A DNA stretch of 54,254 nt, counting the filler, from Bipalium vagum (lineage: Eukaryota), in NCBI GenBank assembly GCA_037834085.1. It is 3 parts of 3 records of this genome, joined end to end, with 100 filler letters (N's around TTAATTAATTAA, not from the genome) between each part and the next. Parts side by side here need not be neighbours in the genome. Positions count along the whole stretch, not along the records: positions 36,016 to 54,254 come from JBBMKC010035360.1; 2 more parts are not named here. One strand, 5' to 3'. How positions within the stretch are numbered: position 1 is the first letter of the stretch; every line of letters begins with the position of its first letter. The notes below the pieces were generated by a model. That model searched no databases, was not told where the DNA came from, and saw nothing but the letters and a program-made list of their open reading frames with translations. Positions 18,285-54,254 of the stretch are shown here, piece by piece. Position numbers and translations under genes: made by a program.

Positions 18285-19040
18285 ATGTCATCCAGTTTTA
18301 AAGTCTTTGTCGTTGGTCATACCGGACTGGTGGGCAAACAATTCCTTGATCTGATTGCCGAAGATTCAAGATTTCGTGAAATCGTTCTGTTCGGCCGAAG
18401 GTTGGTCGATCTGAATTACGGTGAAAACAATAACAAGATCGACCAGAAATTGATTGACTTTGACAAGTTAAGCGAGCATGGCGAGTTATTTAGGGATAAT
18501 TTTGATGGCGGCTTTTGTTGTCTTGGCACGACTCGTAGCAGGTCCGGCAAAGAAGGTTTTATTAAGGTCGATTATAATTACACCTTGAAAGTCGCTGAAT
18601 TGGCGCGACAAGGAAATTGTAAGCAGTTCCATTTGATATCAACGGGAGTAAATTTCTTTTTGATTTTAGTTTAAATGAATGAAACGCGTAATTTTTATTA
18701 GGCTGGCAATCCTAAAAGCTGTTTATTATACCTTCAAGTCAAGGGTAAAGTTGCGGAAGCCATTTGTAGATTAAAGTTTCCAAAGCTCTCTATTTATCAA
18801 CCTGGAGTGTTGAGTGGACAGCGAGCCGAGAATCGATTGGTGGAATCTGCACTGAAAACGGTACTCAAACCGATTTCCTATTTCCGTCCGACCTGGTTAA
18901 CCACGCCCGTTGAAGTCTTAGCCAGAGCCATGGTAAATAACTTTGTTGACGGTTTACCAAATGTTGAGTCCATCACTGAAGAAAACAATGTGAAAATTTT
19001 GGATAACAATCAAATTTTTCAGTTGGGTTCTCCAAAGTAG
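18285..19040 (+). CDS. HTATIP2: Oxidoreductase HTATIP2/TIP30/CC3 (atypical SDR), 233 aa, 2 exons
   Basis: Exons 18285-18647 and 18702-19040 with a 54-nt GT-AG intron. Motifs GHTGLVG, GFCCLGTTR, GFIKVDYNY, YLQVKG, SIYQPGVL, VLARAMV. Confidence 0.93.
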
Positions 19041-27729: not shown

Positions 27730-29960
27730 ACACCCCTGTTTTAATTAGCTAACAATTATTTTCTGGTGATACAATAGCCCTTTTCATGTGCACTCATTTC
27801 GTGTGATCCTTAGGCGATTACTCTCTCGTAGCCATTGTTGTGCTTCTGCGATAACACTGCTACTATTATGTCGAAGCTTGCATCCGTATCTAGAATGAAT
27901 TGTTTCCTAATATCTGGAAAAGTTAAGACTGGGGTTTCCATTAATGCTTTTTCCATAGATTGGAAAGCTTCGACGCAACGTGGTGTCCAGATTAGTTTCT
28001 CCTTGTTTCTGCCAAGTAGTTCTTCCAATGTTCTTGCTTTCGATTCGTGTCCTTTGATAAATTTTCGGTAATAATTACATACCCCGAGGAAACCCCTGAC
28101 TGCTTTTACATTTGCCTGGGTTTGCTCATAAACCTGGTTGTACTATCTTTTGTAGAACGATGTCAAGTGTCTTGTAGTGCTCTGGGATGTTATCTGAATA
28201 TATCAAAATATCGTCCATATATACCATGGTGCCCTGATCTCCTGTTAGCATCTTCGTACCAGGTGCTGATACTATTCCAAACAGCATTCTAGTAAAGCAG
28301 TGTTCTGTTTTAGTTGAAAATGCTGTCTTTTTCCGTGACGAATCATCCGATTCTACATATTCATTGCCCAGATATTCCTTACTGAAATATTGAGCTCCTC
28401 CTAGACGATCTAGTAATTCTTCGGTGTTCGGCATTTTGAATGCTTGTCTTTCTGAAATCGAGTTCAGTTTCCTGAAATCTAAGCAAAGTCGCAATTTTTT
28501 TGTCCTGACGCATACAAGTAGAGAGTTCCACCTTGAATTACATTTTCGTATTATACCGTTCTCCTCCAGATTTTGTATCCAATATCCCATTCATCGGCCA
28601 TGAAAGCTGTTCTATTTTTTCAATCACTCTTGCTAGATCGACGTTGACTTCATTTTTAGAATCTCCAGTGCTCTTCGTTCTCGTTCGTCATCTGATACTA
28701 CTCTTCCATACGTCGCTTTTAAAACGCATATACGAGCATCTGTTTTTTCAATGGTATCGTCTGTGATTTTGCATAGTTGGAACCCGAATGTTCTTTGAAG
28801 ATCGAACCCGCATTTAATGTCTTGGCAAGAATCTACTGCCACTGTGAGGCTGACTCGTTCTGTTCTTCCCGCAACCTTGATCTCAATCTTCACATTTCCT
28901 GATGTCTTCAACATCGTATTATTCGCGCATTTTAATCTTACACTTGTGTTTTGGAGATACACATTCTTCAGTTTTTGTCGTTCAGTACGTTTATTTGAGC
29001 TCCTGTATCAATAGGCATTCGTAAGTTCTTCCCTGTATTTAAATTTCTGTGCTAGGTCGTCCTTGCATTTTATCGTAGGTAATTCTCGCCTGATTCCATT
29101 CTTTGATTGTCACAATTTCTGTCTCTTCTTCCTTGTCAGGGCCGCTTTTCTTTAAAAATTTATGAAGTTTCCACGTCGTCTCTGCTTCTTCCGCTCTACT
29201 CTCCGCGGCGCGGCCCTCCGTGCGAGTAACACCTATGGCGTTTAATATAATGTTCCTATCACCTCGTCTTCGGAAGGAGCCCTTCCATTTTAGGGCTTGT
29301 CCCTGCTTTCCTTCTTATACCTCTCTTTTTCTTCACTGCCGTTGTAGTCCGTACTGTCGTAGTTTCCGAATCTGTCTGCATTTACGGCTGTAATACTGCT
29401 ATTCATTCTGCTTGTCAAATTTCTTCGAAGTCCTCTTTTATCCTTGAAAAGAATACCTTTTTGTTCATGGCCAAATCTAGTTTCTCTTATCTTTCTTATT
29501 GTTCAATAGGTAGTTTGACATTCTTCTGCAGTGACCCTTAAGCGTACATTTTACACATTTTACCTTGATACAAAATCTTCTAAGATGCTCTGTTGACCCG
29601 CAAGTGTAACATTCTCGTTTCTTTGTTAGACAGTTTCGTCTGATGTGTCCAACTTTATTGTAACCAAAACACGTAGGTTCAATGTATCTGTCGTGCCAGC
29701 TTCTGTCTTGTATCCTGGCTTTGAATACTCTGGGTGATTGTTTTCCTGTCCGTGGTTAGTGACAGTTCTTGTGACATCTCTGTAGCTTCTTCTAACAACA
29801 TTTATGGTCTCCTTTTCTTCAATTCTATCCAGATTTCTGATAAGCTGGATGATGCTTTCCGAGTCCTTAATGTTCTGCACTGTGACACTTCCTTATTTCC
29901 TTGTTGTTGCTACAATAAAGCAAAACTTCCTTTCTTACTTCCTCTTTTCCCGTGAATGAC
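27730..29960 (-). mobile_element. Degenerate Ty3/Gypsy LTR retrotransposon (gag, protease, RT, RNase H; integrase and LTRs not found)
   Basis: Zn knuckle CYTCGSTEHLRRFC. RT motifs LRLCLDFRKLN, KTAFST, MVYMDDILI. RNase H motifs FILDTDAS..AVLSQ..ERVIA. Multiple stops and frameshifts. Confidence 0.9.
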
Positions 29961-42146: not shown

Positions 42147-45100
42147 TTAACTTGACAGAAATTTAATCTTTTCCTTGGAAACCAAACAGTCGTATTAAAA
42201 ACCAACCTCCACTTTTGTTTCTTCTTTGTTTATACTTTTATATCGCTGGTGGAAATCTAAATTGCGCATCTCAAACAACCCAGGTCTCGGGTAAGCATTG
42301 AAGGTGGTACTGAATGTTACTGAATTTTCATTTCTGTCAAAATAATAATTAATTAAAAATTGAAATATTGAGCTAACGGAGTCTTAATTTTATCATTTAA
42401 AGTTTCAGTAGACCCAGATTTTGCTGGTGGAGTCCCGTAAAATGTTGCAAACGTCAAATTATCTTTAAGAATAACCTTAATTCTTTCTTGAAATCCAACT
42501 GGTAGAGAGTTTATTATTCCTAGAAATGCAGCAGGATTTAGCGTAAAGAACTTCTGGATGATTATCTCCGATTCCTAAAATGAAATTTATCATACTTTTT
42601 GAGATGCTTTAGAATAATTTATATTCTCATTAATTTAATACTTTAAATTAATATAATTTCTTCATAAAAATTTCACACCCATATTTATAAGGGGTACAAA
42701 TAAATAAGGCGGTTTATTTAAAATAGATTTAGTGAGATATCGAAATATAATTGTGAATTGAAATATAAATCAATTTGTTTGAATAATATCTATTAATTGG
42801 GTAATCATTTAAATTTTTATAATATGTTAATCATTTCAAAATTTTTAGATCTAAATATGTCAACATTTAAGCCAAGCAAAGAACACTTGCGAGAAGTTCT
42901 CATTCATTAATTCATGATGAACAAAACTTCTGAAGAATATTATGCTTATAAAAAACATGTAGTATCTCAGGAAACATGTGAGCATTGGTTTCACCGCTTC
43001 AGAAGTAATGATTTCAGTGTAAAGGATAAAGAAAGCTTAGGCCGTCCTTCCAAATTTGAAAACCACAATTTACAAAATTTATTGGATGAAGATGCCTGTC
43101 AATCGCAAAATCCAGAATGGGTCAGAAAACACGGAAAAGTAATTCTTCTACATGACAACTCAACGCCTCAGATTTCTAAAGCAGTTAAAAGCATGTTAAA
43201 AGATATGAAATGGAAAAAAGTACTCACCTACCTGCTGTATTCACCAGATCTTGCACCTTCCCATTTTCAGCTGTTCCGTTCAATGGCACATGAACTTGCT
43301 GAGCAGCACTTTAAATCGTAAAAAGATGTCCAAAATTGGTCTCAGAATGGTTCTCCTCGAAACTAGAAATGTTCTTTTTGGATGGCATTCATAAACTGAC
43401 TGAAAGATAGAAGAATGCGTGGATAACAATGGCCATTATTTAGAATAAATTATTTTTTCTTTTTGTTTCGAAATTACCATGCTTTGGTTATTAAAAAATC
43501 CGCATTATTTATTTGTACCTCTTATAATTAGTAAACTCATTCTCTTTGCTTTACTTCTAATTTAAAGTATCAAAGATAATTTTAAATAAAATTATCATTT
43601 CTCTTAACAAATGAAAGTTTAATTAAGACTCATAATTTAAAATATTTTCATTTATCAAATGTTCGAAAATAAAATTTATTTTACAAATGAAAAAGAGTTA
43701 ATTTCATTACCTTGTCCGGGTTTGTCTTATTATTTCAATTTAATTATCAAGGACATAAATTTACTTTATTTCAATTAAACTTTACTTTAATTTATTTACT
43801 TTATTAAATTAATTTTTAAATTTTATTCTAAGAATTATGACTTTATTAGAATTACTAGAAAGGGTAAAGGATGAAAAAAGCAATTTCTTTATGTCAAGGG
43901 AAATGTCGAAACCACAGAATATAAATCGATCTTTAATGCAAAAGATCAAATTCAGAAAGAGTTTAGTAGTAACACTTTTGCATAACACATCCTTATCAAT
44001 TATGTCATTGGTACTCATAACACAGTGTACTCTATTTGTACCCCCACTTTTTAAAAATAAAAAACAGGCCTTGAGGGATAGGCCTAAAAATATATTTTGT
44101 CTAAAAATAACATCTATACAAAACACAAAAAATATAAAATTTAATAAAAATAAAAATATATGAAATATTCAATATTTGAAATATACAAAATGTATAAAAT
44201 ATGCCAAATAATTAAAATACCTAAAATACTTTATCACAAAATTCAGGGTCGGTTTTCAATAAAAAAGTGGGGGTACAAATAGGGTACACTTTGTGTCTCA
44301 ATTTATTATTAGTGCTACACAATGCATATTGATAGGATCTTTTTCCAATTAAAAAATTCTAAAAGAGAAATTTCAAACAAGTTTCATGAGCCTATTGGTG
44401 ATGAAGAGCAGGTTATATAAATAAATGAGGCATTACTTGCGAAAAATAGATATTTAAAAGTAAATGTTTACCAAGCAAACATTGCGTTATTGGAGATGTT
44501 GTTCGAGAACAAGCTTATAAATGCTTCATTGAATTTATTGAGAATCACAAAGCCATCTTTCTACCAATTGCGCAATTCCATGGTAATATCACTCAGGTTT
44601 TTTTGAGGCGAAGAATTCGACTATTCCTTTTTTGAGCTTTTCCTTTGAACCAACGCGTTTCCCTGGTAAAAATGCGAGAGAGACCAAAACATATGATAAT
44701 CAGAAGGAGCGAGATCCGGGCTGGGTGGGGGATGACTTCAATGCCTTGCAGTTCCTGAATTTTCCACTGCACTATTCTTGATATATGGCTTGGAGAATTA
44801 TCATGCTGTAGGAGTGCTGTACTGCGATTCAACAATGCTGGGTAAAGAGTGCTCAAATCATTATGAACTAGCTGTAGTTGTTCAACATAAAGGTTACCTT
44901 CGATAGCTCGACCATCCGGAACAAGTTCCCAGTGCACATGCCCCTCTTAATTCCACCAAACTCACAAAATCACTTTCTTTTCGAAGCGATCTAGTGAAAC
45001 TATTTACTGAGTTAGCTGACCAGACAAAAGCCACCTCTACTAGAAAAAAAACCAATTTTTTATCTCCTGTGCCTCCAAAAACGGTTGTCTTTGGGATTCT

Positions 45101-48100
45101 GTAGTAATATCGCGGCAAATGTCAACTCGGCACTTGGCCTGATTATCTATCAATTCGTGGGGAACTCGGAGTGAATTTTTATTTACAAAACTAATGTTAT
45201 GCAGATGACGAACGATAGTGCTTTGAGAATGCCCTCCTCCTCTGACAGCCTTCGGGTGCTTGTTCTGGGCTGCTGCTCTGCTAGGGCACAAAAATCTTCC
45301 TTGTTCATCACCGATGGTCGACCTGAACTTTCCTGACCTTCAATATCGGTATCTCCTTGATTAAAGCGACTAAACCACCACTGAACTTTATTTTCCTTTA
45401 GCACATCCTTGTCTTTCACGTCGCAAATTTCTCGAGTCGCAGCTGCAGCTGATAGACCTTTTTTTCCAATAGTGACGTAATAGTATCCGAATTACTGCTT
45501 TCAAACATTCTAACTGTAAAAAAAGGTGAATGGAATTTTATAAATTTTACTTTTAAAATGTAACTACAGTATCCTTTTCAACGGCTTTTAAATGACACCA
45601 ACGTTTTCATATAAATATTATTATTAAATGATATGGTAAAACAAGAACTTTAAATAACTAAAAACATGAATAACTTTTGACTCAACCTGATACTATATAT
45701 ATTATTATATAATAATATATTATATGAATCTTATGTATTACATGAAAATATTATAAAAGATGGTAGTTATTTATAATGGGTGAGTTTTTGTCAGTTTGTT
45801 ATATTTAAAAAAAATTATGTATATTGAATGAATTGAATAAGTTTTTTTATATGTATGACCTTGATGATTAAATTGAAATAATTAATTAATAATCTAGGGA
45901 AAGTAATTAACTTAACCTGGAAAAGAAAAGCACAACCAAAAAAATTATGTTCCATGTATGTAGAAGATGTTCGATCTCAATTGCTAGACTTTGTATTGTA
46001 AAATTTCATGGAAAAGTTTGATGGTTCTGAAGACTGCTTTTTGGAAGATAAGGGTGAAATAATAAAACCATGTTAATAAATTAATTTTTAATACATTTTT
46101 ACTTTTCTATTATATATTTATTATTATATTATTTTATTATATATTTTATCATATTATTTTTTTAATTCATTCATTATTGAATATGCAGTAAATAAAGGAA
46201 AATCAGACAATATCACCTTTCGAACTTTTCCAGATTTGAGGTCTGCAGTCCAAGATATAATGCGAGAAATTGCCATGACAAAGGTAGGGAATATATTGCT
46301 GAGAATTTCGGATTTCAACAAAACAATTAGAAGCCGAATAAATCTTATCAAGCAAATTTTGATATCACTATCTTTTGGTGGGATTTCATCCATAACAAAT
46401 TTGCAGCAAAGCTCTAATAAGAGTCTTTGAGGAAATAAATTCCTGGTAATAAATTTTGAAAATGTTAAATATAAGCTCATAAACTTATTAAAAATATATT
46501 ATAAATTTTTATATAAATACATAATAATTATAATTACTTTTATTAGGGATCCACTTTAATTTTGAGTCCTAATCAACAAAATTTCAAAATAAATTTTATT
46601 ATTAACATACAAACATTTATTGATTAAATATTCTCCATCAGTATCAACTATTATCTTCCACCTATCTACCAAAGAATAAAAGCCATCAGAATAAAATTCA
46701 GTAGTTTTTTGATAAAAAAAACGTTTGTAAATCATAATTGTTTTCACTAATTTTTCCTTTAAGAAAGTTAGTAATCTGTATCAGCAATGTCTGGGCTGTA
46801 TGGCAGTGGCAAGACTTTATAATACAGTTCTTTTAATTTTTTTTGTCATTTTTGATGCACAGGGTAGAATAGCCCTTTGAAGAATAACCCTTCTCTGCTA
46901 ACCAAACTGTATATATAAAGAGCTTACAATTAAATTGGATCCATAATATTATAAAAATATTACTTATAGATCAGACATAAAATTTTTCACTGAACTCACC
47001 TTATCATATCCGCAGTATCCTGGAGAGTGGTAATGTGATTATCTATGGAAGCAGATGATTGCCTAATTACCAAATGAACTAATAGAGGATATAACCAGTC
47101 CATGAGTTGGGAATGATACTTTTGAATGAACACTTGTAATGTTTCCAACATGTATTCACAATTCTTTAACATGAAATAACATAAGTGATATATTTCACTT
47201 CATAAAATTAGAAAATGACAAAATGGATTTATTTATAGAAAATATACAAGGAGAATATTGTTAATGATATTTGATCATTAAAATTAAAAACCTTTGAAGA
47301 AAATTAAACATTTTACAATAACATATTTTATATATCTATAGAATATTTGACCTCTAAGGGAAAATTTTTAATTTATCAAATCCTAATGTAAACATTAAGA
47401 TAGTGTAATGTCTGGAAAATTTTAATCATTGTTCCTTTTCTTATTTTTTTAACTACCCAGCTTAAGACCAATAGTCAACCACCGAATAAAAAATCAATTA
47501 TGAACAATAACGAGTGGTCGGAAAGCTTTGTCAAAAAACGCGTAAAATCTTTAAATAAAAAAATCAATTGCATATAGATTTATAGCTTTCTTAAATTACT
47601 TTTTATATACATGGTGACTTTTAAGTAGCTTTACAACTTTATGTACGAATAGAAAAAAAAGATTTTGATGTATTTTTTTTGGTACATGAAAACAAAGCCA
47701 AATATACAAAATTTATTTATTTTCAAAATATTCACCATTGGCTTCATAGCAAGTGCGTACTCTACCAGTAACAGACAACAAAACTTTTTCAGTTAAATCC
47801 AATGATATATTAGTAGATGCTTCACTAATTTTATGGTTCAAATCTTCTAATGACTAGATTTGCTGAGGATAAGCTAATTCTCTTATATGACCTCAAACGA
47901 AAAAGTCATGGAGGTGAGGTCAGATGATCTTGGTGGGCAATCAATAACTTCTCTTCTGCGAATCCACTTTTCATGGAAATGCTGCCATAATGCTGCCGTT
48001 TTTATTCGTCTGACAAAGAAAAAACATGTTAGGTTTTAATCCAAAAATAAATTCTACTACTAAAGCCAATTAGATCGACTCCGTGATAAATTCACTAAAA

Positions 48101-48990
48101 CGAGACCATCTCAGTTCAAACAAAAAGATATTATTCTGCAACAAGATAACGTAAGACCCAATACATTTAAAAGAACCAGAAGTTGAAAGAATATTGATGG
48201 GAACACCTGCCTCACACATCAAAGTCCAGAGATGACATTGAAAGATTATCATCTGTTCAGATCATTACATTACTTTTTGAAAAGAAAGGTTTTCAGTGAC
48301 AAATGTAAGATCGGAAATGCTTTTTCCGCGTATTTTGCTGAAAAGGACCGAAAGTTCTTAAAACACGGAATCGAACTTCCACCAGAACGCTTTCAAATCG
48401 TAGTTGATAACAGTGGATTAGATAACTGATTAAAGTATTTGTGTTTTTATAAAATATATTTTTATTCTAAGTATTTTTCCGTATGGAACGACCTCAGATT
48501 TTATAATAATGTAAAATTGAAAGAATAGTAGAATATGATATTATAAATAAAATGACTTTCTTTAAGAACAATAATAAAGTAAACAAAATATTAAAAAAAT
48601 TAAAGTACTTCTTTTTCCTTTTCTTTTAACAGCAAAGTAAATGTATTTTGAATTATTTTTATGTCTGGTAAGCTAAATGAAAATACTATAATAATATCAG
48701 ATTATTTTATATAATAAAAAATTAAACATTTTGTGATGAATTATTATTAAAAATCTTAAAGGATAATGAAAGTTTATGTACTATTGCTTATGTTATCAAA
48801 TTTTAGATTTTCTCATTGTATGAATAAACATGAGATTAATTAATTTTTTTTAGTTAATTCAAAACCCGGATATTTTATTACAAACTTTTTGTCCCGCGCG
48901 TTTCGAATCAACGAGATTTCACTGTATTTAAAATGAACTTTGTTTTTAACAAATAATTATCACAAATTTTCTTTAGTTCTTCTAATTCAT
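42147..48990 (-). CDS. CLASP: CLASP/Orbit/Mast-like microtubule regulator (TOG3 region recognisable; 5' and 3' ends unresolved)
   Basis: Phase-consistent exons ~48990-48923 (EELKKICDNYL), 47163-47000 (MLETLQVFIQKYHSQLMDWLYPLL), 46442-46217 (NLFP..AISRIISWTADLKSGKVRK), 42574-42378 (FTLNPAAFLGIINSLPVGFQE), 42333-42207, and possibly 42173-42147. They match CLASP TOG3 (FLETL..DWL..LL; AVSRVITWTTEPKSSDVRK; FELNTPEF..LPKTFQ). Confidence 0.7.
42688..43524 (+). mobile_element. Internally deleted Mos1/mauritiana-like mariner with both TIRs
   Basis: TA-flanked TIRs TAAGGGGTACAAATAAATAAGGCGG / CCGCATTATTTATTTGTACCTCTTA. Motifs MSTFKPSKEHLREVLI, WFHRFRSNDF, LLHDNS, YSPDLAPS. The WVPHEL/first-D segment is deleted. 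Confidence 0.9.
44020..44294. mobile_element. MITE, about 275 bp
   Basis: TIRs of about 33 bp: ACACAGTGTACTCTATTTGTACCCCCACTTTTT / AAAAAGTGGGGGTACAAATAGGGTACACTTTGT. Confidence 0.85.
44380..44550 (+). mobile_element. Merlin/IS1016-like transposase relic
   Basis: EPIGDEEQVI*INEALLAKNRY...VIGDVVRE..KCFIEFIEN resembles Merlin IGG.G..VEIDES..KRKY..WV.G...CF..V. Confidence 0.5.
44570..45692 (-). mobile_element. Degenerate near-full-length mariner (elegans-subfamily-like)
   Basis: TIR TATCAGGTTGAGTCAAAAGTTATTCATG. Motifs WFSRFNQGDTDIE..SGRP, RVPHEL, TGDKKLVF, LLQHDNSPSH. Frameshifted. Confidence 0.9.
46541..46900 (-). mobile_element. Mariner C-terminal relic in a CLASP intron
   Basis: FYSDGFYSLVDRWKIIVDTDGEY plus an upstream YSPDIA-like segment. 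Confidence 0.8.
47608..48000 (-). mobile_element. Tc1/mariner (DD37D/DD41D-like) C-terminal relic
   Basis: PPRSSDLT (WPPRSPDL.P type), followed by NLVIRRFEP/ANGEYFE fragments. Confidence 0.6.
48010..48500 (+). mobile_element. Mariner C-terminal relic
   Basis: KILLQQDN, DYHLFRSLHYFL, GIELPPERFQIVVDNSG. Confidence 0.85.
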
Positions 48991-50423
48991 CTTACTCAAG
49001 AGTCGTAAATGATATTTTTAGATAATAAGTATTTTAAATCAAAATTTTTTAAAAATTTAAATTAAACAAACCCTAAAATTTGGTTTCTGATTATTGCTTG
49101 AAGCTTTATAAAGGCATTTTGAGAGAATAGATTGATGACTTCCTTGATAGCTTCTTGGAGTTGCATATATGATGATTGTAATCAGGATATCCTTTTCAAT
49201 AGACAATGTGGAAGTTTATGTAAAATATTTGGTTGAACATTTTTAAATTGCAGGATTTTTTAATATGACTAGACAATCATTGATCAAATAATATTATTAA
49301 TTTAAAATATTTGAAATTTAATATTGATTTATTTCTTAAGAAATGTAAAAATATCTATAATTTTTATTCCATATTTTTATTTTTATAATAAGATTTTTTC
49401 CACCTAACTTATGATATAACAGTATTAGATTGAATTTTTAAAATTTTATCTCCGTTTATTCTTTCATAACGGAAAAGGCTTTATGCTTTCCCTGCATTCC
49501 ATAAAAAGTCTAATAAAAAGTGAATAACGCGGAAATCCCGTACACTTTAACTTTATCCTGGACAAGCTTTTCCAAGTTACCATCAGACTTGAAGTAGAGT
49601 TCCACGATCCGACTGGCCAGCTTAGAGTCAATGGCTCTATCACCATCCATCAGTGAGTCATCGGGTTTGTCTCTCTACATTTTAAATGATACACAACTTT
49701 CAATAAGGAAAGAAAGAGAAGGAAATTTAAACTTTTTATTATTAATATGATTATTATTATTAGTTTCTCTCTGCCGTATTTTTCCTTTTACGAAATAAAA
49801 AATAAAATAAAATTTTTAAATTGTAAACAAATTTTGCAAAATCTTCAGAAAAAAATATCCATTCTGTTGAACATTTTTAAATTGCATATTTTTTTATGAC
49901 AGTAATGAATCAAGAATTATATCGTCTTCAGAAATTATCAATAATTTTTTTTTTAATTTGGGACATCTCAACAATATAATTATTTATTTATATTCATACA
50001 ATCTGCACAAATACTGAAGATCCATCTCAAAATCGAAACTTATCCTAACTTTAATTATAAAATAATCAATGTGAAATGTGCATTTTTTAAAATAATATTT
50101 GATTTTGGCACTAAAATTATTTTTTAAAATTTTCAAAAATAATTAAAAAATAATCGCCTAAATTGAAAGTTTTGTCATTATAAAGTTTCACTCTAAAACA
50201 ATTACGAGTTTTCGAACGCTTTAGCTATAATGTAGATATATAATTTTCTGAAGTTTTAGTTTTTCAAGACATCTGAAAAACTAAATGTCACTCATTTCCG
50301 TATCGGTCATTTCGTATTGTCAACATCGAACTGTTAACAATCTGCAAACGTTGCAGGGCTAAAGTGCATTACGAATAATATAAATAAAATCTGGCGATAA
50401 GTAATGTTCACTGTATTTCATAC

Positions 50424-51221
50424 ATGGTTTTTAAAAAGCAATTGAAGGTTTTAAATATTGGAATAATAGCTGTGCAGGGAGCGTTTATTGAGCATGAAAA
50501 CTTTTTCAAGAAGTTAAGTGAAACATCTGAAGGTGTCAAAATAAACTGTATTCAAATACGAAAATCAGTCCAACTTACGGCTGACATTGATGGGCTTATA
50601 ATTCCAGGAGGAGAAAGTACCACATTAGCAAGGTTCTTAGAGTTTGATAAATTTGAGGAATTCTACAACAGGTGGTTGACGGGTATGGATATTCGGGATA
50701 ATCTTTCAATTATTTAATAATTTTCAGAACGAAAGCAAGCGGATAAGAAGTATATGGTTTGGGGAATTTGTGCAGGCTTAATTTTCTTAAGTGACAAAGT
50801 TAAAGGAGAAAAAGAATTAGGTCAATGGAAAGTCAGTGTTACATTTTGTATAAAATTTTGATAAACACGTTTTTAGCTAGGAGGAGTGAATATAGAATGT
50901 GAAAGAAATGGAAATGGAAGACAAAGAGAAAGTTCGGAGAAAATCTTAAGGCTTAAAACTGAGTTATGTGGTAGATTATTTTTACAAATTTGATATACAA
51001 TAACTTTGTTGCTGTTAGACTCACAACATTCAGACTTTAACGGAATATTTATTCGATCTCCTAGAATAACCAAACTCTTGTCTGAAGATGTCGATGTCTT
51101 AGCATATGATGTGAACGATGAACCCGTTGCCGTACAACAAAATAATGTCATTGTTACTTGTTTCCACCCAGAATTATCGGATGATTTTAGATGGCATAAA
51201 TATTTTATACAACTATTATAA
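50424..51221 (+). CDS. PDX2: Pyridoxal 5'-phosphate synthase glutaminase subunit (PDX2/SNO/PdxT), 219 aa, 4 exons
   Basis: Exons 50424-50682, 50728-50831, 50877-50970, 51019-51221 with GT-AG introns of 45, 45 and 48 nt; the spliced frame is open. Motifs AVQGAFIEH, IPGGESTT, WGICAG (catalytic Cys), RNGNGRQRES, FIRSP, FHPEL (catalytic His/Glu). Confidence 0.95.
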
Positions 51222-51719
51222 ATTTAGAATAAAAATAAAGTGCCTTTATCTTTATAAAACTGATTCTCGTCCTTTGATCGAGAAATGGTTAGATTTTGGT
51301 ATACTTAACAGATTAATTGATTGGTGTTCTTTATCATGATTATCTTAAAAGATTAAAATGAATATAAAGCTTTCCATAACAAGGAGTGTTTTTTCGTAAT
51401 TTCTATAGCAAAATTAATTAATATATATTATTAAAAATATGATATTAAATATTAATGAAATAAATAATTTTTCAATCATAAAAATGATGACAACCCAAAC
51501 CAAATTATTGTAATTTTATTTAATAAGAGTATTTTGAAATAAGTATACTTTCTATTCATTCGAAATTATGGTAAAACAGTAAATAAGTCCCGATTCTCAT
51601 TAATACATGCACAATCGAAATGATGCAGTGAAGACGTTCACTGTTTATTTTTTATTTCAATTTCACAAGACTTCGCATTATTGGTTCTTGAAACTTGGCA
51701 TCGACATTGGCTTAAGAGT

Positions 51720-52870
51720 CCTTCAGGTTGTGTAATTATGAATAAGGGCTATCCTATAATATATTTCCCTTTTTAATTGGGTTGGTGGTGTACCATAATA
51801 AACCAGTTAAAATTAAGTTATCTAAAAATTTAATTCTGAAAAATGTTTGTAAAGCTTTTCATCTTTTAATTCAAGTTTCATTTCTTTTTCATTTAAACTT
51901 GTTGATCCCTCTTTAAGATTATAGAGTAAAATTTCATTTTTAATTCAGTTAATGTTTCATTTTTTCTTCAAATGATTTTAGTTGATTTTAAATAATTAAT
52001 AAAATAGAATGATTTTTTCGGCTTACTATTCCATTTACACTAATTTCATTTAATAAACTTTTTCTAAGTTTTGTGATATTAAATGATATCTCTAAACGTT
52101 TGCTCACATATTTTAAAATTACAATATCATTATCATTTATTGAATCAGTTACATTTATTATTTTAAATTTATTCACATTTATTTTTCCTTTCATATCATT
52201 ACCAGTAATAATTAAAAATTTAATATTTGATTCATTTCGAATAAAATTACCTTTTACTTTATGACTATCACTATGATTATTATTATTTTTAAAGTTTTAT
52301 AATCATCATAAAAACAAAGAGATTTTAAAGTATCATTATTATTATCTAATCTCTTCTAAAATATTTTTAAATGAATTTCTAAGGTTAAAGCTTATTTTGC
52401 TCATCTGAGCAACTTCCACATTTCTTTTCATTAACGTTTTTCCATAAGACAAGCTGTTAATTGTTCACATTAAACAAAATGTTTTTTCAGATTTTTTTTC
52501 TGTAATATCATCGCGCATTAGAACTTTTAATACCATTTTTAAATATTCAGTATTATCTATTAAATCAAAATTCGATGTTGAATTAATTCCATAATTACAG
52601 AAAAATTCTAAAAATGGAAGAGATTTTTTTATTTTAAGGAGAGGAATTTTTAGAAAAATTGTTTTTTCAAAGGTGAATAAACCATTTCCTTGTTATACAA
52701 TCCTAACCTTTTCTCCAAAATTTTTGTAATAAATACATAATAAAATAATAAATAAAAATTTGTATCTGTTGATCCTCTTGCAAAATAATGATTTCTTTCT
52801 TTTGAGAAGCTTTGCTTAAATCATGCAGTTACTTTTGTTCCATTCTTTATAATGAACATATAGGATATAG
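51720..52870 (-). mobile_element. Probable Polinton/Maverick(adintovirus)-like relic
   Basis: Fibre-type repeat TGNDMKGKINVNKFKIINVTDSINDNDIVILKYV. Upstream on the same strand: LHDLSKASQKK..KVRIV*QGNGLF and MVLKVLMRDDITEKNLKK fragments resembling small Polinton ORFs. No pPolB, integrase or capsid seen. Confidence 0.35.
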
Positions 52871-53869
52871 TATTATTTAAAATTTTATTATTAAAAATTT
52901 TCAATAAAACAAATAATGCTAACAGCTCACAATAAAAAGTAGACTCAATTTTTATTTTATTATTTTTAGCCGCTACAATCTCTTGCACTTAATTGATTTT
53001 GTAAAAAATTGGAAATAAGATACTTGAATTTTTGAAAAACGTTTCAATCAATGTATTTAGACAAAACATTTGGTTGCGTTTTACTATTTCATACATTTTT
53101 AAAATTACATAATTACGCAACCATTATATAATTTGGTCAATTAAAATTATATGGTAAATTTTAAAAATTTTTAACCTAAAAATTATTCTACAAAAACTTA
53201 TGAATATTTTAATAATTAACAACAAAAAATAAAAAAATAATTTCTAAAAAATTTTATTTTATTATATAATTTTCTCGTATCAATCGCAAAAGCTCTTCGA
53301 AACGATCGATACAATTTGCTTTTGTTCTTCTTTCAGCTTTGTATGGTCAATGAGACTAATTGTTATTTTCTCATATGAATCTTCATTGAAGAAACCATAC
53401 ATAATTCTAAATAAAAAATAAAAAGAATTTAATAAAAAGATATTCATTTACTTATATATTTTATAAATGTGCATTTTGGTATTTTCAAACCAAATCACTT
53501 TCGTTATGGTTTATTTCGGCAGATAAATCTATTATGGCCATGGGTGCTTTGAAATTTCATTGCTCCATGACCATCAAATGGGCAAAATTTAATTTAATTA
53601 AAAAAAACTTAATTTAAAATTAAATTAATTTACTTAAATTTATTTTTAATAAAAACAAAAGTCATAACAAATTGATATATTTATCAATTTTTATAAAACA
53701 AAAATAATTATAAAATAAAAATTTTAAAATTTAAAATTGATCTCAATTAAGAAAACATTAAAAAAATTCTCTCAAATATCTAGGTAAAATAGAAAAAATA
53801 ACAAATAAATATTTTGAAGTAAATAAAAAAATCAAATTCAAATAATATTAACTTAGAAAAATGAAAGAA

Positions 53870-54254
53870 ATATTGTTCAACGTCTTAAAAAATAATTATT
53901 TTATGTTCTGGAGTCATGCCAAAACTTCTTATATGCATTAGGTTCATCTAATTTTCTTTTTTTTCATCGCTGAACATCAGTTTAGAAGATTTATCACCAA
54001 TTTTTAAATCTTCATTGGTCCAACCATTTCTCAATTTAAGACGCTCTGGTTTGAATGGTAGAGAAACTTCCAATTTATAATATTTCATATATCTACACCG
54101 TTCCAAGACATTGGTAATTTTTCTTCTAAAGGGTGTCTCAAAAATCACGCAAGATTTGAATTAAATAAAAAACACCGTTTTTTTCATTAAACTGTTAATT
54201 TTTTATTGAAATATGAAGTACATAGATTAGGGTTATGTATGAAATAACACTGAT
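53870..54254 (-). mobile_element. Tc1/Tc3-like transposase relic
   Basis: LMFSDEKK..LD.P..FWHDSR. Confidence 0.8.

Follow-up and report, generated by a model that had tools for sequence, protein, structure and literature searches.

An intact, intron-containing PDX2 gene was found on the plus strand of the window, by which we mean the whole 54,254-nt stretch of Bipalium vagum DNA that was analysed. Positions 50424-51221 hold four exons, which splice to 660 nt and encode 219 amino acids followed by a stop codon. This four-exon structure is far beyond chance. The first-pass annotation had described an intact, intron-bearing PDX2 of four exons and 219 aa with the catalytic triad and PGGEST, and both the splicing and the motifs agree with that description. 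Judged from its sequence, the product is a predicted PDX2/PdxT glutaminase (PF01174). We consider it probable that the gene is an intact, vertically inherited PDX2, the predicted ammonia-supplying glutaminase half of the vitamin B6 (PLP) synthase, and that its PDX1 partner would be encoded elsewhere in the genome. Such a gene would presumably be expressed.

The gene model was examined by enumerating every combination of one, two or three introns among 142 GT..AG pairs of 35-80 nt. This exhaustive enumeration gave 96 combinations with an open frame and all six motifs. Every one of them needed three introns, which always fell at the same three sites, and no model with one or two introns was open with all motifs. 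The three introns are 45, 45 and 48 nt long, have GT-AG borders and fall behind residues 86, 121 and 152 in phases 1, 0 and 1, and each of them would bring in-frame stops if left unspliced. The precise splice sites may differ from this model by a few codons, so that the possible products range from 198 to 221 aa. The model given here keeps the spacing of 27 residues between CAG and RN, which is the same in 13 of the 14 named animal PDX2s.

Exon 1 (50424-50682, +; M1-T86) contains Q18, E23, H24 and PGGEST with the gate residue E64, and it matches PF01174 at E = 1.8e-10 and TIGR03800 with 46 bits. Intron 1 (50683-50727, +; phase 1) has a donor that is identical in 96/96 solutions and a second possible acceptor at 50739. 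Exon 2 (50728-50831, +) encodes the nucleophile elbow GICAG with the catalytic C101 and the start of the K.GGQ-type insert (PF01174, E = 7e-4). The junction at intron 2 (50832-50876, +; phase 0) preserves the 27-residue family spacing, and alternatives to it exist. Exon 3 (50877-50970, +) carries RNxxGRQ (R131, R136 and Q137), E142 and the unusual N134 and S141. After intron 3 (50971-51018, +; phase 1), exon 4 (51019-51221, +) encodes FIR with the gate residue R165, S166 in place of Ala, and FHPE with H202 and E204, and it ends in a TAA stop (PF01174, E = 1.3e-15; TIGR03800, 64.4 bits).

Exons 1 and 4 scored 41.4 and 58.2 bits against Pfam SNO (PF01174), above the cut-off of 27 bits, and exon 3 alone had no Pfam match. 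TIGR03800 was the top NCBIfam match for both exon 1 and exon 4, and the two scores add up, as a rough sum, to about 110 bits against a cut-off of 105.55. Twelve PdxT/PDX2 structures matched at E 5e-40 or better. C101, H202 and E204 align with C79, H170 and E172 of B. subtilis, the Cys-His-Glu triad of class I amidotransferases. Among 64 other PDX2s, 43 columns are conserved in 85% or more of the sequences, and the gene retains 39 of them. E64, R131, R136, Q137 and R165 are kept, and the flanking N134, S141 and S166 deviate. Each of these three is unique among about 400 fetched PDX2s, where the positions are occupied by F/Y in 393/398, F in 380/398 and A in 391/397, respectively. From sequence comparison, these substitutions could mean a reduced or altered function.

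The surface that would face PDX1 is conserved, and E23, E64, R136, E142 and R165 are all present. The available text of PMC2266796 describes the Plasmodium Pdx2 gate residues E53 and R154 as essential, with mutation abolishing activity; they correspond to E64 and R165 here, both of which are kept. Six residues of S. aureus Pdx2 are named at the Pdx1 interface in the accessible part of PMC11237949. Four of these six are kept, and the two that are lost are also missing in 14/14 and 13/14 named animal PDX2s.

The window contains no PDX1, as the earlier annotation had stated: the best tblastn match with B. subtilis PdxS had E = 0.46, versus 4e-22 for the PdxT control. PDX2 and PDX1 normally lie at separate locations in eukaryotes, so the absence of PDX1 from 54 kb means little. 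Contigs of run X1 were also compared with a metagenomic pdxS (L004, GC 0.43) at 80% likeness and none was placed, a comparison at the DNA level in which a diverged PDX1 would not map. None of six long PDX2-containing proteins was a fusion with PDX1. In P0288, P0335 and P0363, PDX2 is joined to SAICAR synthetase, PNGase A or inositol-pentakisphosphate 2-kinase; each combination was seen once and may be a gene-prediction fusion.

Glutaminase activity of Pdx2 requires Pdx1, and Pdx1 can use free ammonium, according to the available text of PMC2266796. Since Pdx2 needs Pdx1, a PDX2 that is conserved, its interface included, leads us to predict a PDX1. The same dependence suggests that the animal would make some of its own B6, and B6 prototrophy is plausible. 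The alternative is that PDX1 has been lost and that an orphan or decaying PDX2 is drifting, or works with another ammonia-accepting partner. The absence of PDX1 from the window, the long branch of PDX2 (1.67 in the careful tree described below) and the three unique substitutions beside conserved motifs would all fit such a loss. The same is true of the identity to the 387 fetched PDX2s, which is at most 46%, though relatives of a neighbouring HTATIP2 exon reach 63-71%. However, a drifting gene would hardly be expected to keep an open frame across four exons and most of the conserved columns, including those that face PDX1, and the reported inactivity of Pdx2 without Pdx1 also speaks for a retained partner. 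We regard such an orphan or decaying PDX2 as unlikely.

The origin of the gene was assessed with three profiles built from 14 named animals, 15 Firmicutes-type rows and 16 Chloroflexi-type rows. PDX2 scored 227.7, 153.4 and 152.1 bits on them, respectively. Macrostomum, when left out of its own profile, gave the same pattern (225, 148 and 173 bits). Two amoebae also scored highest on the animal profile. The PDX2 of the amoebozoan Dermamoeba algensis (P0250) reached 248 bits on it and fell within the animal group, which could be explained by old common descent, by transfer or by contamination. Because of the place of Dermamoeba and these amoeba scores, these tests point to an animal or amoebozoan type rather than a strictly animal one. 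In full-length BLAST against the 387 fetched relatives, proteins of the animal group ranked first, and 22 rows preceded the first Chloroflexi-type row. Exon 1 alone ranked bacteria first, with nine rows named as bacteria and one as an animal among the 120 matches listed. Raw identity (35.5-43.3% to the 14 animals and 41.8% to S. aureus) does not separate the options.

The four loop lengths of PDX2 are 34, 33, 27 and 25 residues. They are 33-46, 27-31, 25-27 and 23-38 in the named animals and 26, 27, 27 and 21 in Caldilineaceae, and the last two loops of Firmicutes-type rows measure 24 and 18-19. The first-pass annotation had taken WG.CAG and the K.GGQ-type insert as a sign of vertical retention. 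In that form the argument fails, because Caldilineaceae bacteria (Chloroflexi) carry both W-G-x-CAG and the insert, and the two features exclude only Firmicutes-type donors. The 80 loci fetched (alignment A2) each gave one near-full-length match of about 550-640 nt, and such a single stretch leaves no room for introns.

Phylogenetic analysis comprised a 224-row FastTree, from which 30 rows without motifs or of odd length had been excluded and in which bacterial rows were thinned, a quick tree of 64 rows, and a careful tree of 36 hand-picked rows that also served for the AU tests. In the careful tree, PDX2 fell inside an unstarred group of 17 rows (93/92) together with all 11 animals named in the set, Dermamoeba and four rows without a name. 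No starred clade of this tree contained PDX2. Pairing with Macrostomum was not rejected by the AU test (p = 0.39), nor were placements outside the animal group (p = 0.224), with Firmicutes/Fusobacteria (p = 0.080) or with Caldilineaceae (p = 0.054). The proposed preference for vertical retention over horizontal transfer was thus upheld in part: the tree sets PDX2 among animal PDX2s, but the AU tests reject no alternative. Because these other placements were left unrejected (p 0.054-0.22), vertical inheritance from animal ancestors is likely, not proven. Animal affinity is the best fit to the sequence comparisons.

It could also be supposed that PDX2 was acquired long ago by horizontal transfer, either from a bacterium or from a microbial eukaryote, and gained its introns afterwards. 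The unrejected bacterial and outside-animal placements and the exon 1 matches would agree with such a history, and there is a precedent in Globodera and Heterodera, whose B6 genes are tabulated as transferred in the available part of PMC4901422. However, the animal profile is ahead by about 75 bits, so that the best affinity is not to a non-animal donor, the full-length BLAST ranking puts 22 rows ahead of the first Chloroflexi-type row, and the loop lengths fit named animals better than Caldilineaceae or Firmicutes-type rows. In addition, the flatworm Macrostomum carries an animal-type copy, so transfer need not be invoked. We consider an old transfer improbable, and vertical inheritance appears to be the most economical reading.

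The gene lies in a neighbourhood that looks like an animal genome. The window is AT-rich, with a GC content of 0.21-0.40 per 2 kb. Two CLASP exons encoding TOG3 were found at 46157-47199 on the minus strand, 3.2 kb from PDX2; they match residues 113-194 of CLASP2 (3woz) at E = 2.5e-7 and residues 65-99 at E = 0.024, which bears out the CLASP neighbour named earlier. Only these TOG3-encoding exons were found, and the 5' part of the gene was not recovered in 46157-49700 (-). A search for more CLASP exons around PDX2 (25 small ORFs against Pfam and two against PDB) gave nothing convincing. PDX2 is upstream of CLASP on the opposite strand, and it either stands head-to-head with a shortened CLASP or is nested in a CLASP intron. 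An exon-like frame of 54 aa at 49513-49674 (-) is GC-rich (0.44), has no convincing Pfam match and may belong to CLASP. Several exon-like frames at 51991-54160 (-) may be a gene or a degenerate element, with a weak Peptidase_S24 match of 22.4 bits (cut-off 23.3).

Farther away, an HTATIP2/TIP30-type gene of two exons (18285-19040, +) encodes 233 aa, with a 54-nt intron and a GC3 of 0.44, above its neighbours. Its exon 1 has three relatives, the Logan proteins P0240 and P0241 (71% and 63%) and a Bulinus protein (48%). A Dpy19-family gene extends from 31139 to about 34550 (+), with strong Pfam matches in its first two exons. The stretches 27810-29900 (-), 42911-45491 and 48064-48429 hold a broken retroelement with reverse transcriptase, together with several remnants of broken mariner transposases. 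In run X1, contig depth over the mariner stretches was very high. RREB1 and a SynGAP-family gene had also been named as neighbours; these stand at the domain level, with C2H2 zinc fingers in the window and a RasGAP fragment just below the Pfam cut-off (27.6 vs 28.3 bits), and the names RREB1 and SynGAP themselves were not confirmed. A scan for bacterial promoters gave 4 sites versus 3.0 expected, which is irrelevant to a eukaryote.

The introns of PDX2 (45-48 nt) fall within the range of five neighbouring introns (41-74 nt), which were placed by hand, with open frames checked for two of the three genes. Together with CLASP, Dpy19 and HTATIP2, this confirms the host-style introns and animal-type neighbourhood described before. 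The GC3 of PDX2 was 0.29, versus 0.35-0.44 in three neighbours. A contig of run X1 spans 48434-51883 without differences at a depth of 19, and other long pieces have depths of 14-28; this contig is not independent evidence, because X1 may itself be the source sample. Contamination or a non-animal scaffold, to which the occurrence of the window stretch in one public run alone might point, is very unlikely and largely refuted by the three obligatory spliceosomal-type introns, the CLASP, Dpy19, HTATIP2, C2H2 zinc-finger and mariner neighbours, and the unbroken contig with the depth of its flanking pieces.

Published statements on B6 synthesis in animals differ. Animals, schistosomes included, are stated to be B6 auxotrophs in the available text of PMC7891054, and "most animals" are said to be without de novo B6 enzymes in that of PMC6071262. 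Metazoans are counted among the holders of PdxS/PdxT in the accessible parts of PMC5407770 and PMC11237949. A search by title and abstract start, with subscription journals and supplements outside its scope, found no paper on PDX1/PDX2 in planarians or surveying them across animals. The words "vitamin" and "pyridox" do not occur in the main text of PMC6040629. Invertebrate PDX genes may well be recorded in supplements of genome papers. That a free-living flatworm (planarian) makes its own B6 with an ancestral PDX1/PDX2 synthase is quite possible, although we lean slightly against it. If this is true, making B6 de novo would be ancestral to animals. At least seven phyla would have retained the ability, vertebrates and some further lineages would have lost it, and the printed statement of animals as B6 auxotrophs would be contradicted. 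A host that is a planarian and carries PDX1 would be an RNAi-tractable animal and would offer a direct handle on whether animals rely on their own B6.

PDX2 was compared with known systems. The triad, PGGEST, RNxxGRQ, FIR, FHPE and the gate residues map one to one onto PdxT/Pdx2 of B. subtilis (2NV2), S. aureus (8U7J) and P. falciparum (2ABW). Bacterial pdxT is intronless and adjoins pdxS, which was visible in 58 of the 80 fetched loci, whereas the gene here is interrupted by three introns, with no PDX1 in its vicinity. One record (L082, NZ_OX441725.1), which bears the label of a 161-kb plasmid of S. aureus, carries pdxS and pdxT together. pdxT was also present in 27 PLSDB records, some of which are megabase-sized and perhaps not true plasmids. 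The cyst nematodes Heterodera and Globodera likewise carry B6-synthesis genes (SNO/SNZ) in an animal genome. Craig 2008 is said to deal with these nematode genes; Seack 2001 reportedly describes a sponge SNZ. The nematode genes are reported as horizontally acquired in the accessible part of PMC4901422; the named rows of this analysis included no nematode, and the genes are set beside PDX2 here by report.

Invertebrate genes annotated as PDX2 or "PdxT-like" in NCBI (Macrostomum lignano PAA70402.1, Tigriopus californicus XP_059079612.1, Nematostella, Owenia, Clavelina and 23 molluscs) belong to the same family and agree with the present gene in their motifs and in the lengths of their loops. PDX2 was named in at least 26 animal species among the 120 matches listed, namely 23 molluscs, Lingula and two cnidarians. 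Looking up 28 PDX2 clusters by name added six further species (Macrostomum, Owenia, Tigriopus, Clavelina, Xenia and Clytia). With at least 32 animal species of seven phyla already named, the gene is not unusual for invertebrates. These relatives are database annotations, and no paper testing their function was found. ESM Atlas, queried with the Macrostomum PDX2, returned SNO clusters of fungi, archaea and plants only. The best BLAST match of the present gene was P0256 (Logan/ENA, 212 aa; 44%, 174 bits), which also has no Phe at the position of S141. It was the sister of PDX2 in the quick tree (SH-aLRT 94), a pairing not resolved in the careful tree, and a metagenome scan with P0256 as query found no relative. 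Identity to animal PDX2s ranged from 35.5 to 43.3%, with Macrostomum and Tigriopus at the top (43.3% each). The rare G-I-CAG is common to the present gene and Macrostomum; it is found in three of the 333 proteins fetched, and a Chloroflexi-type row is the third. The gene differs from other invertebrate PDX2s in its longer branch, in N134, S141 and S166, and in its short C-terminus. The PDX2 of this window adds one more lineage to a broad, little-discussed distribution among invertebrates, and the mechanism would be unchanged.
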